DNA of 64,000 nt. Source: an uncultured Bacilli bacterium (lineage in GTDB: Bacteria > Bacillota_I > Bacilli_A > RF39 > UBA660). The stretch spans positions 997 through 64,996 of the forward strand of contig CALVOW010000005.1 in the NCBI GenBank assembly GCA_944350445.1, read 5' to 3'. This document shows, one piece after another, positions 469 to 56,650 of the stretch. Position 1 is the first letter of the stretch. Each line of letters starts with the position of its first letter. The translations under genes were made by a program, and so were the position numbers. Under the pieces are notes generated by a model. The model had not been told where the DNA came from, made no database searches, and worked only from the letters and a program-made list of their open reading frames with translations.

Positions 469-2241
469 ATGGAAGAAAATTTTAAAGAAAATAGAAAATT
501 AACCAAAAAAGATTATAAAAAAATATTTGAAAACATAAAAAAGAGTTATAAATTTGTTAAAAGCAACAAAAAAAGTTTAATTATATGTATCATAGTTTCA
601 ATTTTAACCATTCCAGTAAGCGTCTTAACTCCAATATTGTCAGCTCAGATTCTTTTAGCCTTAAATGGAAGTTTATATGAAGACTTATTGAAAATATCCG
701 CCTTTATATTTATTGTTTATAGTATTCAACACTTGCTTTGGTTTATGTCAAGAATTGTCTATAAAAAATATATTGTTAATGTTGTTTATGGTATTCAAAA
801 AGAATTAATGAAAGAAACCTTTAAATTATCTAGTGAATGTTTTGATGAACATGGAACCGGGATATTCATTGATAGATTAAGGCAAGATACTAATGTAATT
901 GCTAATATATTTGATGATTTAGCAAATATATTAATACAAATTTTTAGTAATTTAGGAATATTTATTGTTATTTTTACAATATCAAAAATTATGTTTTTGT
1001 ATTTTGTCTTATGTGGTATTAATGAATTTATAGTTTCTAAGAAAAGAATAAAAATTTATTATGAAAGATTCGGAGAAATTCGTGATTTAGAAGAAAAAAA
1101 TACAGGTCTTGTTGCCGAGCTTATTCGAGGTGTTCGAGATGTTAAAGTTTTAAATTCAACCGATGTATTTATGAAAAAATTCGATAAGCGTGTAAGTGAA
1201 GTGAATGATAAAAATATTAAATTAACTATAAAAAATAATAAATTTTACTTATTTAGTGAAGAAATAAACGAAGTTTTAGATTACTTATTTTACTTTATAG
1301 GAGTTATGCTAACTAATTTTAATTTGTTAACAGCTAGTAACTTTGTAGTACTTTATATGTATAGATCAAAAGCAAGATATTTATTTACATATATTGTTAG
1401 TATGATGGAAAGTATTAAAACATTTAATTTTTCGGCTAATCGAGTGTATGAAATTATAGATGGTGAAAAATTTTCCAAAGAAAAATTTGGTAATATCAAA
1501 CTAAATCATATTAATGGAGATTTTGAATTTAAAAATGTTAGTTTTGCTTATAAAAAAGAAAAAGAGATTTTACACAATATTAGTTTTAAAGTAAAAGCGA
1601 ATACGACGGTTGCCTTTGTTGGCAAAAGTGGAAGTGGAAAATCAACAATATTTAGTTTATTAAATAAATTATATAATGTAGATGATGGAAAAATTTTTAT
1701 AGATGGATATGATATAAATACTTTAACCAAAGATTCGATTAGAAATAATATGTCAATTATTACCCAAAATCCCTATATATTTAATTTATCAATAAGAGAT
1801 AACTTGTTATTAGTTAAAGAAAAAGTTACGGAAAAGGAAATGATTAAAGCTTGTAAAACGGCTTGCTTGCATGACTTTATTATGAGTTTACCAAATGGTT
1901 ATGATACGATTGTTGGCGAAGGGGGTATAACTTTATCAGGAGGAGAGCGTCAACGTTTAGCCATAGCTAGGGCTTTAATTAAGAAAACGGAAATAATTTT
2001 ATTTGATGAAGCAACTAGTGCTCTTGATAATGAAACCCAAGAAAAAATCCAAAAAGCAATACATAATTTAAAAGGAAAATATACTATACTAATAATTGCT
2101 CATCGCTTATCAACGATTGTAAATAGTGATAAAATTATTATGATCGATAAAGGAAAAATAGTAGGGGAAGGAACTCATAAATATTTAATGGAAAAATCTT
2201 TAAAATATCAAAAACTATATCAAGCAGATTTACTTAAATAA
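469..2241 (+). CDS. ABC transporter, fused permease/ATP-binding protein (type I exporter, MsbA/LmrA-like)
   Basis: 590 aa. An N-terminal multi-TM domain is followed by an NBD with Walker A GKSGSGKST, signature LSGGERQR, Walker B ILFDEATSALD and H-loop IAHRLS. Confidence 0.85.
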   Translation: MEENFKENRKLTKKDYKKIFENIKKSYKFVKSNKKSLIICIIVSILTIPVSVLTPILSAQILLALNGSLYEDLLKISAFIFIVYSIQHLLWFMSRIVYKKYIVNVVYGIQKELMKETFKLSSECFDEHGTGIFIDRLRQDTNVIANIFDDLANILIQIFSNLGIFIVIFTISKIMFLYFVLCGINEFIVSKKRIKIYYERFGEIRDLEEKNTGLVAELIRGVRDVKVLNSTDVFMKKFDKRVSEVNDKNIKLTIKNNKFYLFSEEINEVLDYLFYFIGVMLTNFNLLTASNFVVLYMYRSKARYLFTYIVSMMESIKTFNFSANRVYEIIDGEKFSKEKFGNIKLNHINGDFEFKNVSFAYKKEKEILHNISFKVKANTTVAFVGKSGSGKSTIFSLLNKLYNVDDGKIFIDGYDINTLTKDSIRNNMSIITQNPYIFNLSIRDNLLLVKEKVTEKEMIKACKTACLHDFIMSLPNGYDTIVGEGGITLSGGERQRLAIARALIKKTEIILFDEATSALDNETQEKIQKAIHNLKGKYTILIIAHRLSTIVNSDKIIMIDKGKIVGEGTHKYLMEKSLKYQKLYQADLLK

Positions 2242-2372
2242 AAAATACAAAATAGAAAAATAATATAAAATTTAAATTATGAATAGAGTAAAATAACGTT
2301 ATAAATTTTAGTTACTTTTACCAATTTTTTGAAAAATATCTTTTCATTTACATAAACTTAAATGGAGGATAT

Positions 2373-4973
2373 ATGACAAATAAGGGTTTAAGTAAAGAAA
2401 GTGTAATTTTAAGTCGAAAAAAATATGGAAGTAATGAAATAGAAGTTCATAAAAAAAATAAATTTTTATCCTTGCTTTTAGAGTCTCTTGGAGATCCAAT
2501 TATTAAAATTTTGTTAATTGCCTTAGCAATTAAAATAGTTTTTCTCTTTCAAGATTTTGATTTTTATGAGACAATTGGTATTTTTATTGCTGTTTTTTTA
2601 GCTACTTTTATTTCAACAATTTCTGAATATGGTAGTGAAAAAGCTTTTGAAAAATTAGGAAGTGAAGCTAGTCATATTAATGTTCGAGTAAAAAGATCAG
2701 GGGTTGTTACCGTTATTAATATAAGTGAAGTTGTTGTTGAAGATATTGTTCTACTTGAATCCGGCGATCTTATTCCGGCTGATGGTATATTGTTAGAAGG
2801 AAATATTAGTGTTGATGAATCAATTTTAAATGGTGAAAGCAAAGAAACCAAAAAAAGTCCTAGTATCCTTAAATCGGATACAAAAACTAATAAACTTTAC
2901 CGTGGAACAACCGTTTATTCTGGATATGGTCTAATGCAAGTTACAAGTGTTGGATTAAATACAATGTATGGTAATTTGGCCTTAGAATTACATGAAAATG
3001 AACCAATTAGTCCTTTAAAAAATAGATTAACGGATTTAGCGAAAATAATTAGTCGAATTGGTTATGTTGGAGCTTTTTTAGTTGTAATTGCCTTTTTATT
3101 TTCAAAAATTGTTATGGAAAATAATTATGATTTGCAATTGATTAAAGAAACAATTACTAACTTTCCGCTTATGATGAATTATTTAATATATGCCTTAACA
3201 CTTAGTGTTACAATCATTGTTGTTGCTGTTCCCGAAGGTTTGCCAATGATGATAACTTTGGTTTTATCTAGTAATATGAAAAGAATGTTAAAAAATAACG
3301 TTTTAGTAAGAAAACTAGTGGGAATTGAAACAGCTGGCAATATTAATGTTTTATTAACCGATAAAACAGGAACTTTAACCAAAGGAAAATTAGAAGTAAC
3401 CAAACTTTTAAATGGTACTTTACAAGAAATAAAAAGAGAAGATTTAAATTCTTTTAATAATAAAGTTTATTTCGATGCTTTATTTTATAATACAGATAGT
3501 ATTTTTACCAAAGAAAATGCCGTTATTGGTGGTAACTCAACCGATCGAGCCATATGTAAATTTTTAAATAAAAATATTGCTGTTAAAAAAGAAGTTCTTT
3601 TTAAAAAACATTTTGATAGTCGTGATAAATATAGTTCTGTTACGTTAAAAGATAAAGAAAAAATTACTTATTTCAAAGGTGCTAGTGAAGTTTTACTTCC
3701 TAAATGTCAAAAATATTTAGTAAATGGAAAAGAAGAAAGACTCCCTAATATTAATGGTATAAATGAAAGTATTCAAAAAGCAATGTCAGATGGAATTCGG
3801 GTTATTACACTTGCTTATAAAAAAGGTGATAGTTATTTAAATGATTTAGTTTTTATGGGGCTTATTTATTTAAAAGATGAATTAAGAGATGAAGCAATAA
3901 ATGGTATTGATTTAATAAAAAAGGCTGGTATTCAAGTTATAATGATAACTGGGGATAGCAAAGAAACAGCTACCTCAATTGCCAAAGAAGCGGGAATTTT
4001 AACATCTGATTTAGATTTAGTATTAACAAGCTCGGAAATGAACCAATTAACTGATGAAAAATTAAAAGAGAAAATCAAAAATATTCGCATAATTGCAAGA
4101 GCCTTACCAAGTGATAAAAGTAGGTTAGTTAGAGTTTTAGAAGAAATGCATTTAGTCGTTGGGATGACAGGAGATGGTGTCAATGATGCCCCTGCTTTAA
4201 AAAAAGCTAATGTTGGATTTGCGATGGGAAGTGGTACGGAAGTAAGTAAAGAAGCGGCGGATATTGTAATTTTAGATAATAACATTTTATCAATTTCCAA
4301 AGCAATCCTTTATGGAAGAACAATTTTCAAAAGTATTCGCAAATTTATTATCTATCAATTAAGTGTTAATATGACAGCTTTACTTTTATCAATTATTGGT
4401 CCCTTTATAGGTTTTACATCCCCAATTACAATTGTTCAAATGTTATGGCTTAATATGATAATGGACACTTTTGCTGCCTTAGCATTTTCGTTTGAACCTC
4501 CTTTACTGGAATATATGGAAGAAAAACCTAAAAAAATGAATGAAAAAATTATTAATAGTTATATGTATAATGAAATTATTTTAACTGCTATTTATTCAGG
4601 AACTTTATGTATTTTATTTTTAAAATTACCGATTATAAGACATATTTTTCGAATAGGTGATAATTATAAATATCTAATGACAGCTTATTTTGCTTTATTT
4701 ATTTTTATTGGTATTTTTAATTCTTTTAATGCCAGAACTTATCGAATTAATATCTTTTCCAATATTTTGAAAAATAGGATTTTCTTATTTGTAATTGGTT
4801 TTATTATAAGTGTTCAAATTTATTTAATTTATTTTGGTGGTGATTTATTTCGAACTTATGGACTAACTGCCAAAGAATTTTTGATAATTTTAGCAATTGC
4901 TCTTTCGGTTTGGCCGGTTGATGCCATTCGCAAATTAATATTAAAAAAATTCGGTTTTAAGCGAGCGGTTTAA
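2373..4973 (+). CDS. P-type ATPase, Ca2+-transporting type (P2, PMCA/SERCA-like)
   Basis: 866 aa. Has the phosphorylation motif DKTGTLT, the hinge MTGDGVNDAPALKKA, TGDSKETA, an NGES actuator motif and a 10-TM layout. Confidence 0.85.
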   Translation: MTNKGLSKESVILSRKKYGSNEIEVHKKNKFLSLLLESLGDPIIKILLIALAIKIVFLFQDFDFYETIGIFIAVFLATFISTISEYGSEKAFEKLGSEASHINVRVKRSGVVTVINISEVVVEDIVLLESGDLIPADGILLEGNISVDESILNGESKETKKSPSILKSDTKTNKLYRGTTVYSGYGLMQVTSVGLNTMYGNLALELHENEPISPLKNRLTDLAKIISRIGYVGAFLVVIAFLFSKIVMENNYDLQLIKETITNFPLMMNYLIYALTLSVTIIVVAVPEGLPMMITLVLSSNMKRMLKNNVLVRKLVGIETAGNINVLLTDKTGTLTKGKLEVTKLLNGTLQEIKREDLNSFNNKVYFDALFYNTDSIFTKENAVIGGNSTDRAICKFLNKNIAVKKEVLFKKHFDSRDKYSSVTLKDKEKITYFKGASEVLLPKCQKYLVNGKEERLPNINGINESIQKAMSDGIRVITLAYKKGDSYLNDLVFMGLIYLKDELRDEAINGIDLIKKAGIQVIMITGDSKETATSIAKEAGILTSDLDLVLTSSEMNQLTDEKLKEKIKNIRIIARALPSDKSRLVRVLEEMHLVVGMTGDGVNDAPALKKANVGFAMGSGTEVSKEAADIVILDNNILSISKAILYGRTIFKSIRKFIIYQLSVNMTALLLSIIGPFIGFTSPITIVQMLWLNMIMDTFAALAFSFEPPLLEYMEEKPKKMNEKIINSYMYNEIILTAIYSGTLCILFLKLPIIRHIFRIGDNYKYLMTAYFALFIFIGIFNSFNARTYRINIFSNILKNRIFLFVIGFIISVQIYLIYFGGDLFRTYGLTAKEFLIILAIALSVWPVDAIRKLILKKFGFKRAV

Positions 4974-51124: not shown

Positions 51125-53071
51125 TTATTCTGTAAAATAGCCAACTTCAGTTAAACTTCGCGAATTACCGATTATGGTTTGAATAGTAGTAGCACTTTTA
51201 TCTTTATAAAAAAGAGCAATTGAACCACCACCATCTAAATTAGTTCCGGTTTGACAATTTAGATCTAACATAATATTAATTAAATCATTTCTTGATAAAT
51301 CGCTTCCAGTAATTAATACAAAATTATTGGTATTAACTTGACAAATTGCTTGTCTATTAACTTTACTAGAAATACTTGGCATACTTGTTGTAATATTACT
51401 TTTTACCCCATTAACTACTAAAGGGGAAGCAAACGTAAAAGTATTTTTAATGCCAGATGCTATTACTTCGTTAGCCCAAGTTCTTTTAGCATTTATTTCA
51501 GCTTGAGTACTTGCTTTGCTGTCTGTAAATATTCGCAGTGTATTATTAGAATCAATTCCTGTAATAAACCAAGTTTTATAAGCTTTATCATAGACGTTAC
51601 GAATAACCTTGCCATTGGTTATTACCAAAGTTCCAACACTTGTTTTATTATATTTAGAATACTTAGAAACACTTGAAGCATCATAAGTATCTTCTAAATA
51701 AAAACCACTGGCATTAAAACCAACTACCAACTTATTTCCTAAATTATTAGCATTAATAGCCATTTCTAATAATTTTTTAGGTCGATATAAAACAAAACCA
51801 TAGTCAGGAGAGTCATATTTTTTTAATTGATTGTAGGGATCTTTTGCCCAAACTCTTGTAATATAATAACTACTTTTTTTAGTAATATAAACTTTTAAAG
51901 TATTAGTCTCTGATTTTTTTATTACTGTTTCACTACTACCAGGAATAATTGGATCAAGTGCTGAATTATCAATAACTTGACAAGTTATTTTCTTAAAGTT
52001 AGAAGCCTTATCATAAACAGTAACCGAAATAATATCATTTGGTTTTTTATTATAAGAAAAAGATGAATTATTAGAATTAGCAATCGTTATAGTCCCATCT
52101 TGATAAACATAATTTTTAATACCACTTAAATTATCACTAGCTACAACTTTAATCGCTGTGTTATTAGGATTTATCGTTGCTGTACAAGATACTTTAGGAG
52201 TTATTTTATCAATATTATTTACTGTTATAACTTTTTGAAATATATCGCCATTTTGATTATATGCCAAAAAAGTATAAGTTCCATTATTAGTAATTGAATA
52301 TGTAGCTGTTTTTTCGTTTTTCACTATTTTATTTGGTAAAACAAGGGCTAAAAAATTATCACCAATAACAGATACGGAAGCTACTATAGTTTCATTAGTA
52401 TAAGATGTCGTTGAAAGTGAAACAGTAATTACTAATGAATCATCAACTACTACAATAGTTCTAGTCAATTCTTTTTGGATATTATTATAAGATATTTTAT
52501 AGGTTAATTTATATTCTCCAACTAATGATGTATCAATTTGACCACTAACTTCAACAGCATCAGTTAAATCTAAATTGCCGTATGAAGCCTTATATCCTAG
52601 TTCTTGATAATTACCATTAAGAGGAATAGTAACTACATCATCACCAATTAACGAAAAATCTAAATCAAACGTTTCTTCTTCGGCTTCCTCTCCAGTAGTT
52701 TCTTCGTCAGTACTTACGACTTCAACAATTCTTTCTTTGAAAATATTAGCAATTTGATATTTAATAACATAAGTCCCAGGTTTATTAATATCCAAATTAT
52801 TTTCAACGACAATTAAATCTGTTTTTAACTGTCCAAGAGTATCAATAGCATAATAACCAGGTTCTATATATTCCTCACCAACTTCTAAAGTCATTTTCGA
52901 AGAACCAAATAAAACAATTTGTAATTCATTTTCAGTTACAATAGAATTAGTATTGTCATTTTTAAAGAAAAGAAAAAAGGCTGAAAAAATGAGAATTAAA
53001 ACAATTGCCACTAAACTAATAATAATATTTCTTTTGTACCGAAAAAAATTTAAAAGCCTATTCTCTTTCAT
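51125..53071 (-). CDS. Membrane-anchored protein with Ig-like (DUF5011-type) repeats and a C-terminal phosphodiester glycosidase (DUF2233-like) domain
   Basis: 648 aa. Repeated YIEPGY.A.D....L / KPGTYVIKYQ modules and a C-terminal NLDGGGS motif. Confidence 0.5.
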   Translation of the reverse strand: MKENRLLNFFRYKRNIIISLVAIVLILIFSAFFLFFKNDNTNSIVTENELQIVLFGSSKMTLEVGEEYIEPGYYAIDTLGQLKTDLIVVENNLDINKPGTYVIKYQIANIFKERIVEVVSTDEETTGEEAEEETFDLDFSLIGDDVVTIPLNGNYQELGYKASYGNLDLTDAVEVSGQIDTSLVGEYKLTYKISYNNIQKELTRTIVVVDDSLVITVSLSTTSYTNETIVASVSVIGDNFLALVLPNKIVKNEKTATYSITNNGTYTFLAYNQNGDIFQKVITVNNIDKITPKVSCTATINPNNTAIKVVASDNLSGIKNYVYQDGTITIANSNNSSFSYNKKPNDIISVTVYDKASNFKKITCQVIDNSALDPIIPGSSETVIKKSETNTLKVYITKKSSYYITRVWAKDPYNQLKKYDSPDYGFVLYRPKKLLEMAINANNLGNKLVVGFNASGFYLEDTYDASSVSKYSKYNKTSVGTLVITNGKVIRNVYDKAYKTWFITGIDSNNTLRIFTDSKASTQAEINAKRTWANEVIASGIKNTFTFASPLVVNGVKSNITTSMPSISSKVNRQAICQVNTNNFVLITGSDLSRNDLINIMLDLNCQTGTNLDGGGSIALFYKDKSATTIQTIIGNSRSLTEVGYFTE

Positions 53072-55567: not shown

Positions 55568-55620
55568 AATTCCTGTCGAGTAGACAAACTCGACTTACCT
55601 CTCTTTCATTATTATTTCAA

Positions 55621-56423
55621 GTGAAAGGCTCGTCTGTCTGCCCCTCACAGAACCCATCGTGCCCTATTAAGGCAATAGGCTCTTCATATAAATCTTTTGA
55701 TTTAACCTATATTAACTTTAATTCGTGGAATAGGCATTGAAAATCTTGCCCATATTCTATTAAATATTTCATATGTCATACTTTTCTTTTGATGTCTTCT
55801 ATTTAGTATTCTATATGTACTCCATTTAACATATATATAATTGAAGTTTCTTATACTTTATAGATTGACTTCTTATATCTCCTCTTTCTTTTTCCATTTC
55901 TTTTTACCTCCATGTGTAATTAATGTTTCTATTAGAGAAACGATTTATATGCTAGTCCCTTCGCTCCAGAGTCATTACTTCCTTCACCACTACTATGAAC
56001 TAGTCCGACTACTTATAAGTCTTTTACCTAACTTAGTTTTCAATACCTTGCTTTGGTATACCCCTTACTATTGGCAATTTTAAACCTTTTAGACTTGAGG
56101 AACTTATAAGTTCTCCCAGGTATGCTTAATATACCTTGTGAACTCGCCGAGTTCTTAGACCCCGATGGAATTTATAATATCTCGCATTAACGATATTACA
56201 AATGTTGCTTGCTGTAGAAAGGAGTACATAAGCTTCCATATTTATTGTTTTAATAACGAGGCTCAATCACTTCACGCTTTCGCATTTCGGCTCGAACACT
56301 TTCTTGTCTACGCTTAAACCTAATCTCACGACTTTGGCTCCAAGACTAGATACTGGCTCTTTGCTAGAGATTACCAGATTAGGAGTTTCACCCAATTATA
56401 TATTAAGCACCAAACTGGCGCAC
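55621..56423 (-). mobile_element. ORF-less group II intron (Ll.LtrB/IIA-like by motif resemblance) in the valS 5' leader
   Basis: The minus strand starts GTGCGCCAGTTTGGTGCTTAA. Domain I strings are GGGTGAAACTCC and GCCGAAATGCGAAAGCGTGAAG. A J2/3-D3-like CATAGTAGTGGTGAAGGAAGTAATG is present. The D4 RBS GGAGGTAAAAAGAAATG is followed by only a 23-codon ORF. Domain V is GAGCCTATTGCCTTAATAGGGCACGATGGGTTC (55650-55682). D6 ends ..GCCTTTCAC at 55621. Confidence 0.75.
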
Positions 56424-56427
56424 CCTT

Positions 56428-56650
56428 CAAAAATAAAAAAAGACCAAGTCCAAAGGACGAAGTCTTCGTGGTACCACCTTATTTTGTAATAAAATTACCT
56501 TAAAATCTTAATGCGATTAACATTATATCTTACTAAACTCAGATATAATTCTCCAAAGCTACCTTCTGTTAGATTCTTTATTAGTTTCCACCAACCACTA
56601 ACTCTCTGAAAAGTTATCTAACATACTCCTCTTCTTCAACGAATTTAGTT
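56428..56650 (-). promoter_or_regulatory. T-box riboswitch leader, probable Val specifier (GUA), for valS
   Basis: Minus strand. Stem I motifs are cagagagt .. ggttggtggaaac. The specifier context gaagGTAgcttt parallels the Ala leader. T-box sequence aaggtggtaccacg (56468-56481). Terminator gacttcgtcc-tttg-ggacttggtc followed by tttttttattttt (56428-56441). Confidence 0.75.

Follow-up and report, generated by a model that had tools for sequence, protein, structure and literature searches.

The leader of valS, the gene for valine--tRNA ligase, is interrupted by a complete group II intron in the 64-kb window that we analyzed, a stretch of contig CALVOW010000005.1 from an uncultured Bacilli bacterium (all intron, T-box and valS coordinates refer to the minus strand of this window). 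According to the usual description, group II introns in bacteria keep away from essential genes and reside in mobile DNA or after terminators. The element at 55575-56423 is 849 nt long, lacks, through deletion, about 356 codons of its reverse transcriptase (RT)/maturase gene, retains an apparently complete ribozyme, and belongs to a lineage that inserts at Shine-Dalgarno (SD) sequences; we put the probability of this reading at about three in four. An earlier reading of the sequence alone (the original prediction) had placed a group II intron without an open reading frame (ORF) between the T-box terminator and the valS start codon. The identity and the location of the element held up, but its 3′ boundary did not.

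The T-box leader and its terminator were found upstream of the intron as proposed (Table 1). The insertion point is 17 nt past the terminator hairpin, and the valS ATG is 8 nt past the other end of the intron. A simple terminator scan missed the T-box terminator, and consensus scans for promoters and terminators were uninformative. The GUGCG that had been noted at the 5′ end is present, and only 35 nt separate it from the start of a match to the Rfam group II D1-D4-6 model RF02005 (146.6 bits against a gathering score of 49, E = 6e-42, covariance search). Owing to the unusual length of domain VI, the Rfam model for domains V and VI, RF00029, stayed below its gathering score in the window intron (33.1 versus 40 bits); relatives scored 57-59 bits. 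Thus, the Rfam check suggested in the original prediction was positive for the former model and sub-threshold for the latter. The insert is GC-enriched, as had been remarked (36-39% versus 20-30% in the flanks), and the 33-nt domain V had been recognized correctly together with its triad and 2-nt bulge: across nine copies, 97.6% of its cells were paired, with six compensatory pairs. In the window and its close relatives the terminal loop of domain V (55664-55668) is not a GNRA tetraloop but UAAUA, and GAAA-type loops occur in L013 and L016. The zeta-zeta′ contact may differ in the sub-lineage with the UAAUA loop.

The boundaries were determined from intron-less alleles in relatives, a comparison that the original prediction had suggested. 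Eight contigs (L007 and L024-L030) carry an empty valS leader. They agree with the window in the T-box and in the DnaJ-like gene upstream, and their ValRS proteins are 96-99% identical to that of the window. All of them read TTTTTGAAGG/AGGATTTATG (here and below, a slash marks the insertion point), and only 62-63 nt lie between the T-box core (GGUGGUACCACGA) and the ATG. In the BLAST alignment L007 was contiguous at query positions 1-47 and 897-931, that is, across the junction q47/q897, and therefore the inserted element is exactly 56423-55575, 849 nt. In intron-family copies at unrelated loci (L012, L013, L014, L015, L016, L031-36, L037-46 and L049), homology stops at the same base, following ..GUCUACUCGAC, and both intron ends are common to the independent copies L013, L014, L015, L016, L031-36, L037-46 and L049. 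The original prediction had ended the intron at 55621 (..TTTCAC), with a length of 803 nt; the actual end, ..CUACUCGAC, is 46 nt further. The ligated junction that it had derived, ..TTTGAAGG/TTGAAATAAT (GAAGG/UUGAAAUAAU), is contradicted by the empty alleles; with the corrected boundary the predicted junction is UUUUUGAAGG/AGGAAUUAUG, and the insert does not lie between the riboswitch and the ribosome-binding site (RBS), as had been thought, but inside the RBS.

The 46 nt past 55621 belong to a long canonical domain VI, of which they form the interior and the 3′ strand. Unconstrained minimum-free-energy folding (RNAfold) of 11 copies gave in every case one long domain VI hairpin with a single bulged A, four base pairs below it and a 2-nt tail. 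In the nine-sequence alignment, 85% of the cells of this hairpin were paired and five pairs showed two-sided changes, as in GGCAGA with UUUGUC, GGCAGU with ACUGUC and GGUAAC with GUUGUC. The bulged A55581, 7 nt from the intron end, is the predicted branch point. Two Bacillaceae relatives, L020 and L021, whose intron-encoded proteins (IEPs) are ~49% identical, have a shorter canonical domain VI and the same 3′ end, UCUACUCGAC; in these introns UGUGAGGG after domain V pairs directly with ..UC-UA-CUCG-AC at the intron end, which is an ordinary domain VI. L021, a Peribacillus simplex plasmid, also holds the 3′ end of one copy (332-422) about 500 nt upstream of the full copy (938-2878), and the partial copy is followed by a GC-rich terminator-like palindrome.

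That the intron instead has a short domain VI and its end at 55621 (..UUUCAC), the next 46 nt being exon or a 'domain VII' like that of B.c.I4, is highly improbable. The idea has a structural basis, in that GUGAGGGGC and GCCUUUCAC are able to pair as a 9-bp hairpin right after domain V, followed by a hairpin of GUCGAG with CUCGAC, and a documented precedent in the B.c.I4-type introns, where a normal domain VI with a bulged A is followed by a separate 3′ segment of 53-70 nt (PMC1865049, PMC2691827, PMC3261151). However, the absence of the 46 nt from the empty alleles already contradicts it. The two local hairpins that imitate a short domain VI plus an extra hairpin were 74% and 65% paired without any compensatory change, and in the window they were less stable than the long domain VI by 5.4 kcal/mol (-20.1 versus -25.5 kcal/mol). 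The hairpin adjoining domain V also lacks the bulged A that B.c.I4 introns have before their extension (PMC1865049), and the canonical domain VI of the Bacillaceae introns employs the same 5′ UGAGGG strand and the same 3′ strand as the long hairpin. A B.c.I4-like 'domain VII' was ruled out by this plain Bacillaceae domain VI and by the pair counts. The window intron does resemble the B.c.I4 type in ending about 46 nt past the position of the short hairpin and in having Bacillota hosts, but its extra sequence belongs to one long canonical domain VI, which accounts for the whole tail.

Table 1. Features of the valS leader and its intron (positions in the 64-kb window; EBS and IBS, exon- and intron-binding sites; aa, amino acids)
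Feature	Position	Strand	Details
T-box leader of valS	56450..56648	-	RF00230, 131.3 bits versus gathering score 93, full model
T-box terminator hairpin and U7-A-U5 run	56429..56467	-	Hairpin 56467-56439 (RNAfold); run ends at 56429
5′ exon end GAAGG	56424..56428	-	IBS1 and 5′ half of the valS SD; empty alleles GAAGG/AGGA
Complete group II intron	55575..56423	-	849 nt, GUGCG to CUACUCGAC; from empty alleles and from ends common to copies elsewhere
Group II 5′ consensus GUGCG	56423-56419	-	Agrees with the consensus GUGYG
Domain I core region	56150..56388	-	Rfam group II D1-D4-6 model RF02005, full model 1-225
Candidate EBS3 (U), intron nt 155	56269	-	Opposite first 3′-exon base A55574; tentative
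EBS1 loop CCUUUC	56217..56222	-	Intron nt 197-207; CCUUU pairs with 5′ exon GAAGG
IEP start remnant	55826..55897	-	ATG and 23 codons; codons 1-19, then out-of-frame tail and stop
IEP C-terminal remnant	55702..55839	-	Maturase/X domain, residues 376-420 (55839-55705) and stop; frame differs from that of the N-terminal remnant
Domain V	55650..55682	-	33 nt, AGC triad, AC 2-nt bulge; RF00029 alignment
Domain VI	55575..55649	-	75 nt; single bulged A at 55581, 4 bp below it, 2-nt tail AC
3′ exon start AGGA	55571..55574	-	3′ half of the valS SD
valS, valine--tRNA ligase, 807 aa	53144..55567	-	NCBIfam NF009687, 995 bits versus cut-off 738

The insertion point divides the valS SD into two halves. Empty alleles read GAAGGAGGA-UUU-AUG, and the filled allele has GAAGG, the intron and then AGGAAUUAUG. 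Because the intron lies within the SD, the predicted spliced junction would rebuild it as GAAGG/AGGA. With a generic anti-SD, the SD:anti-SD duplex amounted to -12.1 kcal/mol for the empty or spliced sequence versus -4.3 kcal/mol for the unspliced one. The 5′ half of the SD is also the predicted IBS1, which pairs with the EBS1 loop of the window intron over 5 bp, including one G-U. In the copies compared, whose 5′ exons are unrelated, the EBS1 loop pairs in each case with the final 5-8 nt of the adjoining exon: CACCUC with GAGGUG (L015), UAUACC with GGUAUA (L017), AAGCGC with GUGCUU (L021), CCUCAA with UUGAGG (L013) and CCUUUC with GAAAGG (L034). The filled and empty alleles also differ at 3′-exon position +5 (window 55570), where AGGAaTTATG was found in 6/6 filled and AGGAtTTATG in 8/8 empty alleles. 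This T-to-A difference could be a single-nucleotide polymorphism linked to the sublineage, co-conversion at insertion, or a compensatory change.

As the original prediction had stated, the intron is unable to encode its own RT/maturase and none is present in the window. A tblastn search of the 64 kb with P0134, an intact IEP of the same lineage, found two out-of-frame remnants only and no other RT. The ATG followed by 23 codons that had been noted in domain IV is the start of the IEP gene: its translation is MEKERGDIRSQSIKYKKLQLYIC followed by a stop, residues 1-19 are 95% identical to P0134, and it has its own SD just upstream, in domain IVa. The second remnant is 84% identical to P0134 over 45 residues and aligns with a fragment on contig L005 (..LIGHYNYYG..PIPHIKVNIG followed by the stop). 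Only residues 1-19 and 376-420 of the 420-aa IEP remain, and therefore about 356 codons were deleted. The deletion was placed by tblastn and BLAST coordinates; a global MAFFT alignment against L031 misplaced the gap. The ribozyme part was 94.9% identical over 585 nt, with zero indels, to that of an intact, presumably active copy, and it retained the 5′ GUGCG, domains I-III, a domain IVa stub with the IEP SD and start codon, domain V and the long domain VI.

Three forms of the valS site were found. Six valS leaders are filled and eight are empty, and the form without the ORF recurs at 99.9-100% identity on valS contigs from three other samples. L005, from a strain with a 100% identical ValRS, carries a different intron form at the same site, in which the IEP frame is open, runs off the start of the contig and matches the C-terminus of intact IEPs at 95% identity. 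This form is probably the ORF-containing parent. In a comparison of L005:1-384 with window 55700-55960, about 10 substitutions lay in the 150-nt ORF tail, and domain V, domain VI and the exons were identical. This divergence suggests that constraint was relaxed once the deletion had occurred, or that copies underwent gene conversion. Judged from these contigs, the valS insertion is recent, polymorphic and confined to one near-clonal sublineage of the species.

When the 82-aa L005 fragment was used as the query, only fragments of up to 126 aa were retrieved, and the RT part of L014 recovered the intact 420-aa IEPs of the lineage (P0131-P0140). The intron RNA of P0134 is 92-95% identical to the window intron. 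The IEP has RT and X domains, ends with the X domain and has no D/En (endonuclease) domain; it matched LtrA and TeI4h in the PDB at about 1e-45, and by pairwise similarity its nearest full-length relatives are from Bacillaceae (~49%) and Sinorhizobium (~40%). The likeness to Ll.LtrB on which the original prediction had drawn is therefore superficial, and the lineage combines a IIB-like RNA with an endonuclease-less IEP. A tblastn comparison with plasmids was uninformative as to its class, for which class D (RmInt1-like) and class B were considered. The prediction had named the lack of any homologous full-length intron as a refuting condition; the intact copies on other contigs show the opposite. 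In a scan of the genome collection with a domain I motif, however, the single locus found was L014, a related decayed copy in another metagenome-assembled genome (MAG). L012 holds a second decayed copy, a 3′ intron fragment (2519-4413) that runs from RT domain 1 to the 3′ end; its decayed ORF is fused in frame to a fragment of an IS21-like transposase.

Relatives of the window intron lie mostly at ribosome-binding sites. A sister intron with the IEP P0219 (~68% identical) was sampled at ten loci. At nine of these the 5′ exon ends in GGAGG, AGAGG or UGAGG, the five among these nine for which the 3′ flank was recovered each show an ATG at +8 to +11, and several sites have a TATAAT box just upstream. 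The EBS1 loop of this intron is CUUUCCUCUAAG. In a tally of the whole clade, which takes in L013, L015 (at an ExoIII-like gene), L016 and L049 besides the window/P0134 and P0219 sites, a long ORF starts with an ATG at +6 to +12 in 10 of the 15 cases for which a 3′ flank was available; the intron then sits 5-11 nt upstream of the ATG, just after an SD-like GAGG or AAGG. Three of the remaining sites were ambiguous and two had no ATG, and none of five outgroup introns had such an ATG. From these site and loop sequences we infer that the clade targets SD sequences through an anti-SD-like EBS1. A scan of viral contigs gave eight matches, seven of which were chance matches in high-GC DNA.

Members of the same lineage as the window intron follow three T-box leaders: that of valS, that of ileS and one of an unknown gene. 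On L031 and L033, a DivIVA gene is followed by a T-box (88 bits; specifier AAA-AUC-A, Ile), a terminator and then UUUUUUUAUGGAAGGG/AAGAUAUUAUG, leading into the IleRS gene; on L031 the intron between them contains an intact IEP. L032, L034 and L036 have a second T-box (94 bits), followed by UUAUUGGAAAGG/AGAAUUUUAUG. L031 and L032 share the intron and the ileS 3′ flank (both ~1700-3960) and have different 5′ flanks and T-boxes; this discordance could stem from chimeric assembly across the 1.9-kb repeat or from recombination of intron copies. In all four known 5′ flanks of the valS/ileS sub-lineage, a U-run lies a few bases upstream of the intron. Such a shared signature of an attenuator terminator plus an RBS would explain the repeated occupation of T-box leaders. 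We regard it as a tentative proposal, with slightly less than an even chance of being correct, that an endonuclease-less Bacillota clade retrotransposes into ribosome-binding sites via an anti-SD-like EBS1 and that one of its sub-lineages recurrently colonizes T-box leaders of aminoacyl-tRNA synthetase (aaRS) genes (valS, ileS and the third) by recognizing a terminator U-run plus an SD. The T-box neighborhood itself is probably a by-product of SD targeting, because the clade prefers SD sequences, including those of genes without a riboswitch.

For the valS intron we infer splicing, a need for a maturase in trans and a dependence of translation on splicing. When uncharged tRNA-Val accumulates, transcription would read through the T-box terminator, and the read-through transcript would carry the intron together with valS. 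Splicing, assisted in trans by the maturase of an intact sister copy at another place in the genome, would then rejoin the two halves of the SD, so that valS could be translated as efficiently as from the intron-less allele. Continued splicing is favored by the absence of ribozyme indels relative to the intact copy, by the retention of the domain IVa stub and by the near-identity of the ORF-less form across samples. Several observations weigh against this reading. Neither the window nor the genome-collection scan yielded an intact IEP from the organism's own genome. The 5-bp pairing of EBS1 with IBS1 is weaker than the 6 to 8 bp at the ileS and T-box B sites, and the EBS2/IBS2 and EBS3/IBS3 pairings were not established with confidence: the IBS2 region is a U-run of low complexity, and the column search for EBS3 gave no perfect column and two columns at 8/9, which was not significant. 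The candidate EBS3 showed 6/6 covariation within the clade, but a second column was equal and there were few independent changes. Unspliced RNA retains AGGA 3 nt before the AUG, so that some translation is possible, and the accessibility of the start region (RNAfold) showed no clear difference between the spliced and unspliced sequences. ORFs are decayed in several close copies (L012, L014), and therefore the lineage may be dying in some hosts.

A rival reading is a dead, unspliced relic, with ValRS translated via the residual AGGA or from transcript starts inside the intron and the insertion simply tolerated. The deletion of the IEP, the ORF decay in related copies, the short EBS1-IBS1 pairing, the persistence of AGGA and the T-to-A change in the filled alleles, which could be linked or compensatory, all agree with such a relic, which we nevertheless consider unlikely. 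A relic does not account for 585 nt of ribozyme without indels or for domains V and VI that are identical to those of the L005 form, and without splicing the drop in SD duplex energy would affect an essential, apparently single-copy gene. Nor did promoter-like sites inside the intron exceed chance (4 found versus 5.6 expected in shuffled sequence). Still less likely is that the T-box and the intron form a selected two-step device, in which tRNA sensing is followed by splicing-dependent assembly of the RBS. The original prediction had pointed to a coupling of attenuation with splicing; this stands as a possible consequence of the insertion, with no sign of a designed feature: the insertion is recent and polymorphic, and the SD preference of the clade explains its position. 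The recurrence of one lineage at the same relative position after three T-box leaders, the expected rebuilding or re-spacing of the SD by splicing and the precedent of a riboswitch-ribozyme tandem that moves an RBS (PMC3984707) speak for a device. However, the valS insertion is restricted to one near-clonal sublineage, the clade also inserts at the SDs of many unrelated riboswitch-free genes, the close copy L014 follows an ordinary terminator with no gene start nearby, and no sign was seen of the T-box fold influencing the intron fold. The reading of the valS element as a recently inserted, ORF-deleted intron from an SD-inserting lineage is therefore preferred.

Parts of this picture are already known from other systems. 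ORF-less derivatives, trans-acting maturases, and lineages specialized for terminators (IIC) or start and stop codons (IIB1) have been described. In the tandem of a c-di-GMP-II riboswitch and a group I intron in Clostridioides difficile, splicing places the RBS correctly before the start codon (PMC3984707). The valS leader is similar in that a 5′-untranslated-region (5′-UTR) riboswitch is followed by an intron whose removal would restore RBS placement, but the C. difficile intron belongs to group I, its aptamer allosterically controls the choice of splice site and the arrangement is a fixed device, whereas the window intron is a mobile, polymorphic group II element with no sign of communication between T-box and ribozyme. 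The ORF-less dnaN introns of Trichodesmium erythraeum, with the RIR intron as their sister, provide a precedent for a trans-acting maturase (PMC12584367). Together with the ORF-less copies of Thermosynechococcus, they resemble the window intron in being ORF-less derivatives of an IEP-coding intron in housekeeping genes and in their presumed dependence on a related full-length copy, as proposed here (PMC12584367; PMC2882425). The window copy retains the start region of the IEP in domain IV and, in contrast to these introns, lies in a 5′ UTR within the SD rather than in coding sequence; its trans maturase is a deduction, and its host is a low-GC spore-forming member of the Bacillota rather than a cyanobacterium.

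The clade shares some features with subgroup IIC, namely the short endonuclease-less IEP, the short IBS1 and copies dispersed to many sites; in addition, the P0219 intron has no evident IBS2, and terminator U-runs immediately precede the window copy and three of its close relatives. A CGC triad in domain V is typical of subgroup IIC. The triad here is AGC, in contrast, and the ribozyme, domain IV not counted, is larger at ~580 nt. Promoters and SDs, not terminator hairpins, precede nine of the P0219 sites, and most sites of the clade have no upstream terminator. The IIB1/CL1 clade is described in PMC12584367 (citing Michel et al. 2007) as proteobacterial, located at or adjoining start or stop codons, and equipped with an RT that has an endonuclease domain and with an insertion of 300-700 nt close to the 5′ end of domain I. 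Both clades are monophyletic intron lineages tied to host translation signals and not to mobile DNA or to arbitrary intergenic positions, but in the clade here the 420-aa IEP carries no endonuclease domain, domain I has no such insertion, and the introns sit just after the SD core. It thus lacks the defining features of both IIC and IIB1/CL1. Our literature search returned no paper on SD-targeting group II introns or on a T-box combined with a group II intron; its coverage was incomplete, and novelty is unproven.

The aaRS gene whose RBS holds the valS intron is essential and under riboswitch control, and the intron, which has no maturase of its own, persists in several of the populations sampled. 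With empty, ORF-containing and ORF-less alleles in one species, the site offers a system for assessing the fitness cost of a leader intron in an essential gene. If the proposed targeting is correct, pairing of an anti-SD-like EBS1 with SDs would be a third specialized insertion strategy beside terminators and start or stop codons, would explain site choice by simple base-pairing, and could provide a compact targeting module for insertions at gene starts. Intron transcription would be guaranteed, efficient translation of the host gene would depend on splicing, and copies in T-box leaders would add a splicing step to the tRNA-sensing control of essential genes. The pattern would also supply naturally occurring cases in which to study the coupling of splicing with translation initiation in bacteria.

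The specifier of the valS T-box is most likely GUA (Val), read as GAA-G-GUA-G. The specifier loop (56553-56561) reads GAAGGUAG, and the frame of codon, purine and helix gives GUA; shifted by one base, a GGU (Gly) reading directly follows GAA. In glyQS leaders the specifier codon directly follows GAA. The loop sequence GAAGGUAGC was invariant in four divergent valS leaders. On L009, from a relative, a class II aaRS gene (tRNA-synt_2b/HGTP_anticodon) immediately precedes the valS T-box, and upstream of this gene a weak T-box-like match scored 55 bits, below the gathering score (L009:208-392 and 2159-2373). In the valS leader of L009, the stretch from the terminator to the start codon is longer by ~130 nt.

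Downstream of valS, the window contains a gene for a 648-aa protein with Bact_surface_Ig-like and NAGPA domains (51125-53071), which is absent in the strains with a 98% identical ValRS. In those strains valS is directly followed by spoIIP (L024:5924-5989). The presence or absence of this gene is a second polymorphism at the valS locus. At L001:5497-7443, gene calling split its counterpart into two ORFs (212 and 428 aa).

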